From: Candidatus Poribacteria bacterium
GTDB taxonomy: Bacteria > Poribacteria > WGA-4E > WGA-3G
Assembly (NCBI GenBank): GCA_965205065.1
Contig: CBDBFT010000001.1
Location: forward strand, 1,817,782 to 1,881,781
Direction: 5' to 3'
DNA: 64,000 nt
The notes under the pieces are model-generated. The model did no database searches. It was not told the origin of the DNA and saw only the letters and a list, made by a program, of their open reading frames with translations. Shown here one piece after another: positions 1 to 21,993 of this stretch; position 1 is the first letter of the stretch; each line of letters starts with the position of its first letter. Made by a program: the position numbers and the translations under genes.

Positions 1-3000
1 TGAAGAGTGTGCTGCAACGAGTTCATCCCGCTTCGCTTTATCTACCACAAACACTTCAGTCGGTACTGTTTCAATACCGAAATACTGAGGCTCCTTGATA
101 TATTCTCCCAATGGAGGACCTGCGTTACGAAAACTTTGTAGCAGATCTAAAACTTCCGGTGATACAAGCGGTTTCCCGTCAGAGTCTAAAGCTTTCTTTA
201 CCATAGGGTAGCGGTGTCTGAAACCTTGTCGGACAAGTGCAACGATGTCCTTTGGCAATTTAACCTGATGTTTCTGCTCAAAGGCAGCAACGTTTTTGTA
301 ATCGTTCCGAAAAGCAGCGACAATATCCATACCTTTGTCCTTAGCAATGTTCAGATCTTCTTTCGCTTTTTTCCATTCTCTCAGATGTAACCACACCTCC
401 CCACGATTATAATAGGATTCGGCATAATCAGGCTTGATGTTTATCGCTTTGTTATAGTCTATTATAGCGTTTTCAAAATCGCCCATGGCTGCGTAAACAT
501 TGCCCCGAGTGTAATATGCCTCAACATAATCTGGGTTGAGTTCTATTGCTTTGGTAAAGTCTTGAATAGAAAGACCTAACTCACCTTTAAAGTTATAAGC
601 AGCACCACGGTAGTAATATGCATTGGCATGATCTGGTTTCAGTTTTATTGCTTTCTTGAAATTTTCAATAGCTAAATCGTCAAAATCTCCCTTGAAAAGG
701 TACGCAAGACCGCGATGGTAATATGCACCCACATGCTCTGGATCCACTTCTATCACCTTGTTTAAATCCTCAATCGCAGCGTCATAATCATCTTTATAGT
801 TATAAGTCATCCCACGCTTCTGATAGGCTTCGGCATACGTAGGGTCAAGTTCTATTGCGTTACTAAAGTCCTCAATCGCAGCGTCATAATTCTTTTTGAT
901 GGCTTTAGCACAACCTCGATCGTAGTATACCATGGCAAAATCTGATTTGATCTCAAGGGCTGTGCTATAGTCTGTAATTGCCATATCAAGTTCATCTTTA
1001 TCTGCATAAGCACGTCCGCGCCCCCAATAAGCATAAGCATCATCAGGATTGAGCTTTATCTCTGTGGTAAAATCACCAATAGCACTGTCAAAATCACCAT
1101 TGCAGGAATAAGCCACTCCTCGTTTGTGATAGGCATCGGCACGGTCTGGATCCAGTTCTATAACCTTGCTAAAGTCATTGATAAATTTCTCAACCTCGTT
1201 TTTGCCACCGTAAGCCATTCCGCGATGGTAATAAGCATCCGCGTCTTTTGGATCCAGTTGTATTACTTTGGAATAATCCTCAATAGCATCGTCAATTTGC
1301 CCCTTTCTGTGATAAGTAACACCACGGACATGGTAAGCATCAACAAAGTTAGGGTTGAGTTTTATTACCTCGGTAAGTTCCGCAATGCCTTTGTCAAAAT
1401 CCCCATCAATGCTAAAAGATCCCAGGCGATGGCTATGAGCATTGGTATTATCAAGACTGAGTTTTATCGCTATGCGAAAGTCCCTGATGGCTTTACCAAT
1501 CTCACCTTTTCTACCGTAAGCAATACCTCGGTTGTGGTATTCAATAGCATTTGGATCAAACTTTATCGCCGTGGTAAAATCTTTAATCGCTTTATCAAAA
1601 TCGTCTTTGAGGATGTAAACGGCTCCGCGAATATTGTAGTTCCTAGCATTGTTAGGTTGTAGTTTGATTACTATGCTTAAGTCATTAATTGCTTTATCAA
1701 AATCACATTTAACACAATAAGCTTGGCCGCGATAATGATGTGCTTCTACTATATTAGAATCCAGTTGAATTGCCTCACTAAGGTCATTGATAGCATTTTC
1801 AAAATCATTTTTGTAATAGTAAAAAACACCCCGATAGTAATATGCTTCGCCAAATTTAGGCTTCAATTCTATTGCCTTGTTATACGCCTCAATAGCTTGT
1901 TCCACTTGATCTTTCTTTCCATAAACGGTACCGAGAGTGCAATAGGCCAAGGCAAAATTTGGGGATAGGCGAATTGCCTCATGCAAATTAGAAATGGCTT
2001 TGTCAAAATCACCTTTTTCGCTGTAGATAGTACCAAGTACGTTATAAGCAAATACATAATCCGGATCTAGACGGATTACCTCATTCAAATTGGCAATAGC
2101 GTTGTCAAAATCTCGTTTGAAGTAGCAAACAAGGCCGCAAACATAATATATCTCAGCATTGTCAGGTTGTAGTTTTATCGCGTGAGTAATATCTGCAATA
2201 GCGTTATCAAAATCCTCCTCCATGCTGTTAGCAAGGCCGCGATTGCTATATGCTTCGGCATGATCAGGTTTTAACTTTATCACCTCGCTAAAGTCAGCAA
2301 TGGCTTTTTTAATCTTGTATATCGAACTATAAGCAAGCCCGCGAAAGTGATATGCCTCAGCCATCTTGGGTTCCAACTCTATAAGTATGGTATAGTCCTT
2401 AATAGCATTGGTAAATTCTTTTTGGAGGCCATAAACATTTCCACGATTGTAGTAGGCAGCGGCGAAATCGGAATTTCTTTTTATTGCCTCGTCATAGTTA
2501 TCAATAGCTTTAGAGTACTCGTCTTTATTGGCATAAGTGAGTCCGATATAGTAGTAAACATCAGACCGTGCTGGTTCTAATTTCCTCACAGTGTCATAAT
2601 CCTCAATAGCAAGATCATACTCGTTCCTGCTGAAATAGATAAATCCGCGGTTGAGATACGCCTCTGTATCGAAAGGTTTCAGTTTTGTCGCTTTCGTATA
2701 GTCTTTGATTGCTAAGTTGTCATCACCTTTACTATAGTAAGTTAGGCCTCGGTTGCAATAGGCTTCAACAAACTCCGGATCGAGATCTATAGCTTTGGTA
2801 AAGTCTTCAATAGCAAGGTCATACAGCCCTTTTCTACCCTGGGCCATTCCCCGATTGTGGTAAGCATCTGGACCATCCGGAGTTAGTTGTGTCACTTTTG
2901 TAAAATCTTGAGCAGCTAAATCATGCTCACCTTTTTTGTCGTAAGCAAGTCCCCGATTGTAGTAGGCTATTAGATAATCCTGCTTTATATTTATCGCAGT

Positions 3001-4146
3001 GTTGAAATCATTGATAGCCCGGTCCGTTTCACCATTTTGAAGGAAGGCATTACCACGGTTGTTATATGCGTCGGCTTCAGGTTTCAGTTCTATTGCTTTA
3101 CTAAAGTCTTCAATAGCCCGTTCAGCCTCGTCTTTGTTCGCATAAGCAATCCCACGAATATTATAGGCTTCTGGATTATTGGGATTCAATTTTATCGCCG
3201 TATCATAATCTCGGATTGCTCGCTCAAACTCACCTTTTACATTATAAGCAATCCCACGATTATTGTAGGCCTCGGTCAAGTCTGGTTGTAGACTTAGTGC
3301 GGTGCTGTAGTCTTGGATTGCAACATCAACCTTACCTGACAGTTGGTAAGCACGACCACGATTGAAATAGGCCTCAGCAGAATTAGGTTCCAGATTTATT
3401 GCGTTAGTAAGATGATCAGATGCCTTTAAATAGTGCTTGGTTTTTTCTTCAGGGAGCATTGTTTCATTCTCAATATCTTGAGACTTTTGGCTTTCCATTA
3501 ATTCTGAGTAAAAACTCCAGCGATTTGTCTGACTTCCAATGAAACCGTGGATATCATGGTAGATAGTTTCGTCAGATATGTCGAATTCTGGCTTTTGAAG
3601 GTGCTCCAGCAAAGTCCGCTTAAGTTCTTTCGGAATAACAATGATTTCATCCGACGTGATAAGGTCATTAGGAATAAAACCTTCAGGTGGTTGAACGAAT
3701 ATGCTTTTCTGCACATTGGGACGACTTCCTTGCTCTGAATTCCGAGGTTTTCTAAGCCAGTTTTTTATGTCTCCATTTTTGTCTTGCAATATGATCCTAC
3801 CATCTTTATCAGGAGAACCCTTGGCGGCGAAAAAAAGAGCCACGTAATGGTCGGTAGTAAAGTCTATCAGATTGGTTTTACCTCCAAAGTGTTGGAGCTC
3901 AACGAGAATATCAAACTCGTCTGTTTTGTTACTATACCTTTTAGCCTTTTCCAATTCTCTTTTTTGCACTTCTTCTATATCAAGATCCAATAAATTAAGT
4001 TTTTTCATTTCTCGCCAGAGGTTTGACGATACGATCTTATAGCATTCTTGTTCACCGCGGTAAATGTAATCACCATCGGCAGATTTCTTCACTATTTTGC
4101 CGATTATTTCTAAGATTCTATTTGGCTCAATTTGTTCAGTGCTCAT
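1..4146 (-). CDS. Giant FRG-like domain + TPR-repeat protein, partial (C-terminus beyond the left window edge)
   Basis: Minus-strand ATG at 4146..4144 (MSTEQIEPNRILEIIGKIVKKSADGDYIYRGEQECYKIV...). That frame stays open to position 1, and every listed minus ORF in 1..4146 lies in another frame. The N-terminal ~200 aa carry YRGE...SSLWR and ELQHFGGKTNLIDFT..VALFFA motifs that resemble the FRG domain. The rest is dozens of 34-aa TPR units (AEAYxNRGxAYxxKGDxDxAIxDxxKAIELxP); the + strand ORFs at 1126..3291 are its antisense artefacts. Confidence 0.7.
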   Translation of the reverse strand, partial: MSTEQIEPNRILEIIGKIVKKSADGDYIYRGEQECYKIVSSNLWREMKKLNLLDLDIEEVQKRELEKAKRYSNKTDEFDILVELQHFGGKTNLIDFTTDHYVALFFAAKGSPDKDGRIILQDKNGDIKNWLRKPRNSEQGSRPNVQKSIFVQPPEGFIPNDLITSDEIIVIPKELKRTLLEHLQKPEFDISDETIYHDIHGFIGSQTNRWSFYSELMESQKSQDIENETMLPEEKTKHYLKASDHLTNAINLEPNSAEAYFNRGRAYQLSGKVDVAIQDYSTALSLQPDLTEAYNNRGIAYNVKGEFERAIRDYDTAIKLNPNNPEAYNIRGIAYANKDEAERAIEDFSKAIELKPEADAYNNRGNAFLQNGETDRAINDFNTAINIKQDYLIAYYNRGLAYDKKGEHDLAAQDFTKVTQLTPDGPDAYHNRGMAQGRKGLYDLAIEDFTKAIDLDPEFVEAYCNRGLTYYSKGDDNLAIKDYTKATKLKPFDTEAYLNRGFIYFSRNEYDLAIEDYDTVRKLEPARSDVYYYIGLTYANKDEYSKAIDNYDEAIKRNSDFAAAYYNRGNVYGLQKEFTNAIKDYTILIELEPKMAEAYHFRGLAYSSIYKIKKAIADFSEVIKLKPDHAEAYSNRGLANSMEEDFDNAIADITHAIKLQPDNAEIYYVCGLVCYFKRDFDNAIANLNEVIRLDPDYVFAYNVLGTIYSEKGDFDKAISNLHEAIRLSPNFALAYCTLGTVYGKKDQVEQAIEAYNKAIELKPKFGEAYYYRGVFYYYKNDFENAINDLSEAIQLDSNIVEAHHYRGQAYCVKCDFDKAINDLSIVIKLQPNNARNYNIRGAVYILKDDFDKAIKDFTTAIKFDPNAIEYHNRGIAYGRKGEIGKAIRDFRIAIKLSLDNTNAHSHRLGSFSIDGDFDKGIAELTEVIKLNPNFVDAYHVRGVTYHRKGQIDDAIEDYSKVIQLDPKDADAYYHRGMAYGGKNEVEKFINDFSKVIELDPDRADAYHKRGVAYSCNGDFDSAIGDFTTEIKLNPDDAYAYWGRGRAYADKDELDMAITDYSTALEIKSDFAMVYYDRGCAKAIKKNYDAAIEDFSNAIELDPTYAEAYQKRGMTYNYKDDYDAAIEDLNKVIEVDPEHVGAYYHRGLAYLFKGDFDDLAIENFKKAIKLKPDHANAYYYRGAAYNFKGELGLSIQDFTKAIELNPDYVEAYYTRGNVYAAMGDFENAIIDYNKAINIKPDYAESYYNRGEVWLHLREWKKAKEDLNIAKDKGMDIVAAFRNDYKNVAAFEQKHQVKLPKDIVALVRQGFRHRYPMVKKALDSDGKPLVSPEVLDLLQSFRNAGPPLGEYIKEPQYFGIETVPTEVFVVDKAKRDELVAAHSS

Positions 4147-21856: not shown

Positions 21857-21993
21857 GAAAAATATTGTAATTTGCTTGACACTTTTTTAGACAGTTGTTA
21901 TACTACTTAAATACTGAATAGGCAATGAGGCAAGAGCGGTACGAGGGAACTCTGTCTCATTATTTTACCGAAAACCCTCGAATTCTGAAGCGT

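Follow-up and report, generated by a model that had tools for sequence, protein, structure and literature searches.

In defence islands, unrelated immune modules adjoin one another and are turned over gene by gene between close relatives (Makarova et al. 2011). Hma systems consist of a helicase (HmaA), a methylase (HmaB) and an ATPase (HmaC), and 62.7% of them carry embedded genes, many of which are defence genes (bioRxiv 10.1101/2024.01.29.577857). In Halomonas, HmaA alone restricts T4, and the NOV_C domain of HmaA is a PD-(D/E)xK nickase (PMC11232893). The systems have been renamed DUF499-centred BREX-related (BR) systems, for which a restriction-modification (RM)-like mechanism is proposed (PMC12839542, NAR 2026); type 1 is marked by a helicase-nuclease fusion, and over half of the taxa have an ATPase with a fused HEPN domain (PMC12839542). 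A further described system, Avs5 (AVAST type 5), is a SIR2-STAND fusion that joins a SIR2 NADase-type effector to a STAND protein with a long, variable C-terminal sensor. This work describes a stretch of 64,000 nucleotides (nt), hereafter the window, from Candidatus Poribacteria bacterium, in which an Hma block, a two-gene SIR2 and STAND operon and a protein with FRG and TPR domains lie side by side. Poribacteria are sponge symbionts and form an uncultured, host-associated phylum. Defence-related features are described in one report as enriched in sponge-associated microbial metagenomes (PMC5099237).

The window covers positions 1,817,782 to 1,881,781 of the forward strand of contig CBDBFT010000001.1 (GCA_965205065.1). 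Genes were called from a listing of open reading frames (ORFs) combined with a frame scan of the window. The start of g2 (8576) was fixed by an identical protein, P0001 (1365 amino acids, aa), and the start of g6 (14454) was picked to agree in length with orthologues of 973-976 aa. Pfam calls were judged by the curated cut-offs of the database, and PADLOC was run on nine proteins. A cydB scan in which one genome was taken per species assigned the window to Candidatus Poribacteria and yielded related loci. Only one genome shares the flanks of the window; this sister is represented by contig JAJDZB010000082 (loci L001 and L081).

All seven large genes in positions 1..20772 (g1 to g7, Table 1) match defence models in Pfam and PADLOC, and the catalytic or nucleotide-binding motifs are intact in each of the seven proteins. 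Of the 20 ORFs to the right of them that were scanned against Pfam, those with a match encode repeat proteins or proteins of metabolism or transport, and the others have none. The genes on this side include cydB, katG, an MFS transporter, an AhpC-domain protein, proteins with WD40 and lectin domains, TonB and a TonB-dependent receptor, followed further right by argG, an ABC transporter and a sulfatase. We consider it probable that positions 1 to ~21 kb form the right-hand part of a chromosomal defence island, organized in three apparent transcription units with one later insertion. Unrelated defence systems adjoin here and their content differs between close relatives, which are the features that define such an island. 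Nothing categorical separates the locus from the islands of Makarova et al. 2011; it has no obvious mobile-element vehicle and its composition is native. We infer the biochemical activities of the encoded proteins and the anti-phage role of the island by homology.

An original prediction, made from the letters of the window, had placed three defence modules in a region of ~22 kb (1-21985) and had located the interest of the region in their combined presence rather than in any single gene. Searches with hidden Markov models (HMMs; Pfam and PADLOC) confirmed the clustered domains, and these searches together with the comparison with related genomes bear out the emphasis on composition. The SIR2, DUF1156, DUF499, SNF2, FRG and HEPN assignments held, whereas NACHT is weak, as g2 stays below the cut-off and is NACHT-like only. 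Those genes that were compared with relatives proved to be neither universally conserved housekeeping genes nor failures of the HMM searches, the two outcomes that would have spoken against the prediction.

Table 1. Features of the window discussed in the text, with coordinates in the numbering of the window.
Feature	Position	Strand	Description
g1	<1..4146	minus	FRG-TPR protein, at least 1382 aa; partial, open at the left edge
Remnant ORF tail LENKVDKMVYALYNLTEENIAIVEEKE*	4143..4226	minus	Probable C-terminal end of a lost gene; stop codon (TGA) overlaps the ATG of g1
g2	4479..8576	minus	Predicted STAND-type P-loop NTPase
g3	8566..9636	minus	SIR2-family protein; 11-nt overlap with g2
SIR2/hmaA spacer	9637..9842		Divergent intergenic region between g3 and hmaA
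Promoter-like site	9762..9789	plus	TTGACA-16-TAAAAT, 11/12 consensus matches
g4	9843..13259	plus	HmaA (by homology)
g5	13340..14410	plus	Embedded HEPN (DUF3644) protein, PDC-S19
g6	14454..17387	plus	HmaB (by homology)
g7	17422..20772	plus	HmaC (by homology)
IS1-family element	21054..21979	minus	DDE_Tnp_IS1
InsB-like ORF	21066..21482		Within the IS1-family element
InsA-like ORF	21371..21856		Within the IS1-family element, overlapping the InsB-like ORF
cydB	22407..23462		Right flank
115-aa ORF	23544..23891		Probably not a gene
811-aa gene	27811..30246		AhpC-domain gene, within region 27638..30352

Comparison with the sister shows how the content of the locus changes. The flanks of the two genomes are ~93% identical at the nt level over more than 14 kb, with 95% protein identity for CydB and 97% for KatG, and the sister keeps the Hma/STAND locus beside cydB. 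In the sister, cydB and hmaC are separated by a GmrSD type IV restriction gene, at the place where the window has the insertion sequence IS1 and a repeat array; the sister has no IS1. The body of g5 is lost as well, and its last ~50 codons remain as a scar with 60-64% identity. There is no separate SIR2 gene in the sister; its STAND protein (62% identical) has a fused N-terminal SMEK_N domain, and a degraded SIR2 5' remnant, in which the ATG has become TTG, lies beside the conserved hmaA promoter region. Because this remnant persists, SIR2 is probably the ancestral state at the sister locus. Downstream of the STAND gene, an unrelated gene takes the place of g1.

Divergence from the sister is uneven among the shared genes. 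The nt identity amounts to ~91% for hmaA, ~80% for hmaB and hmaC and 74-78% for the STAND gene, versus 93% for the flanks. At the protein level, HmaB keeps 98-100% identity at its two ends as against 44-68% across aa 250-700, HmaC is 72-80% identical in its first two thirds and 94-100% in its last third, and the STAND protein drops to 24-42% around aa 1050-1250. This concentrated divergence, beside neighbouring segments of 94-100% identity, points to segment exchange or diversifying selection. It also bears on the proposal that the Hma block mainly serves an epigenetic or DNA-maintenance role, is kept vertically and has diverged under relaxed constraint rather than in conflict. The native composition of the block, its synteny in the sister species and a promoter region common to two more genomes agree with that proposal, which we nevertheless regard as hardly credible: the divergence is concentrated in the methylase centre and the N-terminal two thirds of HmaC, every genome seen has defence genes inside or beside its Hma block (the HEPN gene, Septu or GmrSD), and HmaA is experimentally anti-phage in Halomonas. 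The island as we read it would be long-resident and would change at its site as cassettes are replaced, parts are deleted and segments recombine.

The pairing of the SIR2 and STAND genes with the Hma block extends beyond these two genomes. On a 17-kb metagenome contig (L085), a SIR2-STAND pair again stands divergent from HmaA, g5, HmaB and HmaC, and a genome of 6.4 Mb (L086) holds a decayed composite with a split SIR2 gene, no STAND gene and different flanks. The latter locus has two embedded systems, as a Septu pair (PtuA 7.5e-131 and PtuB 3.9e-34; positions 7706-9843) separates the HEPN gene from hmaA. SIR2-STAND and Hma are divergently paired, in four Poribacteria genomes or more, across a conserved promoter region of 200 base pairs (bp), which could indicate co-regulation. 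In the window this spacer contains a promoter-like site upstream of hmaA (Table 1); in a four-genome alignment of the spacer TTGACA is invariant and the second hexamer reads TAAAAT or TAAACT. Neither of the flank arrangements is seen in the more distant Poribacteria, at whose loci katG and Hma are missing and cydA comes immediately before cydB.

The assignment of g4, g6 and g7 to Hma, and thus to the type-1 DUF499-centred BR systems, rests on matches to Pfam and PADLOC models. g4 matches HmaA of PADLOC (3e-189) and exceeds the Pfam cut-offs for SNF2-rel_dom (52 bits), Helicase_C (90 bits) and, at the C-terminus, NOV_C (75.5 bits); it carries DDAGAGKT at aa 131, DEAH at aa 231 and a D..(E-V-K) motif at aa 1052/1066-1068. 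A predicted N6-adenine DNA methyltransferase, g6 matches HmaB (1.6e-133) and DUF1156 (72 bits, 3.5e-20) and carries the motifs FAGGG (aa 139) and DPPY (aa 570). g7 matches HmaC (9e-100, with an alignment that begins at residue 5) and DUF499 (77 bits, 7.6e-22), with the Walker A and B motifs GGGKT (aa 85) and LLDEA (aa 206), and has no fused N-terminal HEPN domain. The spacers g4-g5, g5-g6 and g6-g7 measure 80, 43 and 34 nt. Each gene occurs once and on one strand, with one embedded gene where the PADLOC rule for Hma allows up to three. The three genes on one strand, their domains and the embedded extra gene are shared with the type-1 systems (Payne et al. 2021; PMC12839542); 1370 of the 2446 type-1 systems have HEPN at the N-terminus of HmaC, whereas here it is a free-standing gene in the operon. 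An Hma block with an embedded HEPN gene is a known arrangement. By homology, the block would work in an RM-like manner: HmaB would methylate adenines in host DNA, and HmaC (an ATPase) and HmaA (a SNF2 translocase with a PD-(D/E)xK nickase) would act on unmodified invading DNA.

The embedded gene g5 matches DUF3644 of Pfam (193 bits, 4.8e-57) and, over its full length, the candidate PDC-S19 of PADLOC (1.6e-135). It has the four-helix fold of the HEPN superfamily and the Rx4-6H motif, here R108-N-x-I-x-H113 (Rx4H), which is invariant in 44 sequences of the family. In the predicted model the C-terminal half forms a compact alpha/beta domain with high confidence (predicted local distance difference test, pLDDT). 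The family counts 1811 matches with conservation over the full length, and 14 distant relatives are found on viral contigs without Hma genes. A PDB sequence search with the g5 profile returned nothing meaningful. The closest validated counterpart is HEC-08, a DUF3644 HEPN protein that likewise sits inside an Hma operon, is oriented alike and carries Rx4-6H, but that ends in cysteine-rich zinc ribbons where g5 has its alpha/beta domain. An assignment of g5 to HEC-08 was rejected, with a BLASTP E value of 3.3 and no match to the HEC-08 model (HEC-08 itself scores 1e-173), and g5 does not match the DUF3644 model of PADLOC either. Within the island, g5 would act as a second-layer RNase.

The SIR2 and STAND operon consists of g3 and g2. 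For g3, Pfam reports SIR2_2 (74 bits, 1.4e-20) and PADLOC the SIR2 region of ThsA (6e-24), a SIR2 of the ThsA/LmuA/Dsr-like kind. VGSGSS, TTNYD (aa 133), AHLHG (aa 185) and GFSMxDPY are invariant across four aligned SIR2 partners, and g3 is a predicted NADase effector. g2 matches PDC-M54A (2e-174) over model positions 301-1657 only, the N-terminal 300 positions being absent. Its Walker motifs are GGPGVGKS (A, aa 25) and LLFDAFD (B, aa 91), and the protein has a long, helical C-terminal region that would serve as sensor. NACHT reaches 22.6 bits against a Pfam cut-off of 26.7, and AAA_16 and nSTAND3 also stay below their cut-offs; many homologues of g2 have a NACHT match, mostly marked as weak. 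From these motifs and scores, g2 is a predicted STAND-type P-loop NTPase that is NACHT-like at best.

The STAND family of g2 comprises 960 matches in two forms, one of ~1350 aa without an N-terminal domain and one of ~1550 aa with a fused SMEK_N domain. Wherever the short form was sampled (7/7 loci: the window, L082/L087, L084, L085, L088, L089 and L090), a SIR2_2 gene lies directly upstream with an overlap of 11-14 nt. The surroundings of these loci are varied and rich in defence and restriction genes. The SIR2 partners are 38-77% identical to g3, while the STAND proteins hold 70-74%, and all catalytic motifs are kept. Among the best 120 STAND homologues, approximately one sixth have the fused SMEK nuclease domain and no separate SIR2 gene; SMEK is the nuclease effector domain of short Argonaute systems (PMC10810196). 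A metagenome scan with g2 yielded one locus, a near-duplicate of L082, and no STAND relative was found on viral contigs.

Functionally, Avs5 is the closest described system. The catalytic Asn and His of SIR2 are found in g3 and the STAND Walker motifs in g2, as in Avs5, but membership was rejected since the window has two genes with an 11-nt overlap rather than one polypeptide. Five PADLOC families are matched by g2 at E<=0.01, and no Avs/AVAST family is among them. With PDC-M54, g2 shares the core of the A gene; it differs in the missing first 300 positions and in its partner, a SIR2 protein. No match to a PDC-M54B model was obtained for the set of nine proteins, nor does g3 match any PDC-M54 model. 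The logic of the operon would be Avs5-like with the effector as a separate polypeptide: the STAND NTPase would sense an infection cue through its variable C-terminal region and would then activate the co-translated SIR2 protein, leading to NAD+ depletion. Our literature search found no paper that describes this two-gene SIR2 and STAND architecture.

Two further observations concern these operons. In L088, L089 and L090 (~1-6000 in each), which belong to three other genomes, SIR2 and STAND hold the same conserved place upstream of a run of Peptidase_M24, AP-endonuclease and HflX-like GTPase genes, which is followed by smpB in L089 and L090. The upstream neighbours differ, namely a type ISP enzyme, an HsdM-like methylase with a DNA methylase and DUF4268, and an LTD-domain protein, so that this site looks like a second variable defence spot. 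In addition, L083 (14705-14839) and L084 (14088-14222) have, after the STAND gene, a conserved ORF for a predicted membrane peptide of 44 aa (M..A.III.SI...GI....WSIISTRK...). It was rejected as a part of the system, as the window, L081, L082 and L085 lack it.

The third module is g1, which is cut by the left edge of the window. It begins with an FRG domain (48 bits against a cut-off of 25, 2.4e-12), followed by 28 TPR_1 stretches that correspond to ~30 TPR repeats, and it matches PDC-S15 of PADLOC (1.5e-16). The motifs YRGE (aa 29) and QH..G..TNLIDFT (aa 84-97) are invariant in the family alignment. The last 100 visible aa match P0361, P0362 and P0363, and g1 is collinear with P0362 at both ends. 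Because these relatives carry ~275 further residues, including a TaqI_C domain, after the matched 100 aa, g1 most likely continues for ~0.8 kb (~275 aa) beyond the left edge. The C-terminal module of the family matches type IIG enzymes over model positions ~860-1130 including TaqI_C, that is, at their target-recognition end; weaker matches to the g1 C-terminal query are true methylases with NPPY motifs. Unlike the type IIG RM enzymes, the g1 family has no type IIG methylase or nuclease domain.

The N-terminal slot in the g1 family is variable. P0362 has FRG; P0363, P0367, P0375 and P0377 have a TIR domain like that of ThsB, the TIR protein of Thoeris, at the same position; and P0374 possibly has HNH. 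The TPR array varies in length from ~8 to ~30 repeats, that of g1 being unusually long. FRG is classed in the ADP-ribosyltransferase (ART) superfamily as a predicted NADase effector (PMC9503650). g1 is thus probably a single-protein sensor-effector, in which ~30 TPR repeats would link a predicted NAD+-consuming FRG domain with a target-recognition module for DNA that has type IIG ancestry. The PDC-S15 models have 254-422 positions and their best matches with g1 cover N-terminal parts only, as compared with at least 1382 aa and ~30 TPR repeats in g1. A PDB sequence search with the FRG profile found no relative of solved structure, and in our literature search no paper on the effector, TPR and recognition-domain architecture was found.

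An alternative reading gives g1 a different role, as a host-interaction protein of the 'eukaryote-like' TPR kind outside immunity, in which case the island would have only two defence modules. FRG relatives are abundant in Poribacteria, as FRG alone or FRG with a few TPR, and none of the 120 best exceeds 450 aa. Poribacteria metagenomes gave 827 matches to FRG or FRG-TPR proteins, with two copies on at least one assembly contig; in the sister the g1 position holds an unrelated gene, a separate promoter may drive g1, and the functions of FRG proteins are predictions. We still consider this role unlikely. The FRG domain matches PDC-S15, and the same body of TPR, linker and TaqI_C occurs with FRG exchanged for TIR, possibly HNH, which is the effector-swapping pattern of immune proteins. 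Moreover, the C-terminal module has its match in the part of type IIG restriction enzymes that recognizes DNA, and the N-terminus begins directly with the FRG domain and is not signal-peptide-like.

Between g1 and g2, a short remnant ORF tail (Table 1) resembles the C-terminal tails of type IIG or PglX-type methylases. The remnant is also found in the sister (L081 ~14800-14880), though the downstream gene differs there, and positions 4165-4849 are 78% identical to L081. It is probably the scar of a lost RM gene. A relation to the type ISP enzyme of L084 was rejected, and the tail is unlike the C-terminus of the g1 family.

The right end of the modules is followed by an IS1-family element (DDE_Tnp_IS1, 78 bits, 1.4e-21). 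Two overlapping frames encode its DDE transposase, and an A10 run lies between them at 21463-21472. The element ends in imperfect terminal inverted repeats (21054-21101 and 21932-21979) and is bordered by an 8-bp target duplication, GAATTCTG (21046-21053 and 21980-21987). All of these are features of the IS1 family; with 926 bp, the copy is longer than the IS1 of E. coli, which has 768 bp. The sister has the uninterrupted target site (...GATCTTGAATTCTTAAGCGTCC...). With its own target duplication and an empty site in the sister, IS1 is not a structural edge of the island, but a recent simple insertion in the hmaC-cydB spacer. Since the sister has its GmrSD gene between HmaC and cydB, it is cydB itself that forms the right border. 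A related IS1 (73% nt identity, same terminal GAGGGTTTTC) lies downstream of cydB at a different site in L032 (11218-12020), which may be coincidence or target preference.

These data also address whether the region is a discrete mobile island, such as an integrative element or composite transposon, inserted beside cydB with IS1 as its right end. The position of IS1 at the right edge suggests this, together with the related IS1 just downstream of cydB in the more distant L032, the separation of cydB from cydA, which indicates rearrangement nearby, and the different flanks of the Hma/SIR2 composite in L086. Against it stand the 8-bp duplication of IS1 itself and the sister, which carries the island with the IS1 site uninterrupted. 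The window holds a single IS copy, and Pfam, repeat and tRNA scans detected no integrase, tRNA or bounding repeats in 1..22 kb; an Rfam scan found no family. For the genes of the island, GC content, GC content at third codon positions (GC3), distance in codon usage and tetranucleotide correlation lie within the range of the flank genes, the lowest GC3 values being those of the SIR2 gene (0.27) and g5 (0.28). The low tetranucleotide correlation of positions 1-4000 is probably due to TPR repeat content. With native composition and neither integrase, tRNA nor bounding repeats, a horizontal origin is unsupported, and we judge a mobile island very unlikely; a resident island that changes in place is the reading that we prefer.

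Several expectations of the original prediction were thereby revised. It had assumed an integration hotspot, which does not hold in the mobile-element sense, as in-place cassette turnover is seen instead, and it had suggested a comparison of GC and codon usage between island and flank, in which the computed values gave no signal. IS1 does follow the modules, but it is incidental as a border, and the proposed extent of 1-21985 needs correction at both ends, the left end lying beyond the window and the right border being cydB. Variable presence between conserved flanks was found for whole modules, with the sister keeping the locus at cydB, and not for the island as a whole, for which no island-free site was seen. 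The switch to housekeeping genes (cydB, katG) occurs within a flank that is itself rearranged.

A number of points weigh against the reading of the region as a defence island with three immune modules. The NACHT assignment of g2 is sub-threshold, and the AlphaFold model of FRG has a pLDDT of 42.9, which makes it unusable for judging the ART fold. Sponge symbionts also typically have TPR proteins as 'eukaryote-like' factors of symbiosis. PDC-S19, PDC-M54 and PDC-S15 are PADLOC candidates, and the roles of g1 to g7 rest on homology. The left end of the island falls outside the window, and the sole genome that shares the flanks also has the island, so that no empty site for the island as a whole was seen. 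Composition within the range of the flanks and the lack of integrase, tRNA and bounding repeats, given above, belong here as well. Finally, Payne et al. report that Hma systems are usually not near other defence systems, whereas the Hma block of the window directly adjoins other defence modules, which is untypical of their systems.

The right flank shows several features of its own. A 31-nt unit, CACATTCTGTTAGATTGTGCTTCTTTTGTAG, with a 6-bp hairpin occurs in 8.6 tandem copies at 21996-22264, between IS1 and cydB, and as single copies at 21025-21045 (degenerate), 23596-23618, 44575-44597 and 53500-53522; the window has 12 matches where 0 are expected. The array expanded recently, since the sister has one copy at this spot, and IS1 sits between the degenerate copy and the array. 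The cydB gene is orphaned: no cydA is detectable in the window or in L001 of the sister, and katG lies divergent upstream instead, while all more distant Poribacteria loci examined have a cydA-like ORF directly before cydB. Most of the cydB-katG spacer is filled by a tandem array of the CTTCCAWC type (23659-23839; period 8/16/24, ~22 copies). As this array accounts for the 115-aa ORF (Table 1), the ORF is probably not a gene. Further right, the 811-aa gene encodes a C-terminal AhpC/TSA-redoxin domain, and its first 496 residues have no Pfam match; the gene is absent from the sister, within an otherwise conserved flank.

Taken as a whole, the locus is a good but fairly ordinary example of a defence island, and otherwise the expected kind of locus in a group already known for many defence genes. 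Both the SIR2 and STAND operon and the g1 family vary known themes; the idea that they may be undescribed system types rather than routine members is one that we hold tentatively and with more doubt than conviction. If true for g1, a type IIG recognition module stripped of methylase and nuclease would be wired to interchangeable FRG, TIR and possibly HNH effectors, giving a one-protein sensor of DNA sequence or modification state whose response is NAD+ consumption. If true for the operon, it would be an Avs-like system with its effector as a separate polypeptide. Both provide testable architectures, the effector-TPR-type-IIG recognition domain protein on the one hand and SIR2 and STAND acting as separate proteins on the other, and the idea of 'guilt by embedding' gains support for the candidate PDC-S19. 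Above all, the window offers a coordinate-level example of defence-island change between sister genomes of an uncultured, host-associated phylum, which captures the swap between a SIR2 gene and a SMEK domain as effector, the deletion of an embedded gene with its scar, the gain or loss of GmrSD, mosaic divergence in the methylase centre and the sensor region, and a dated IS insertion.

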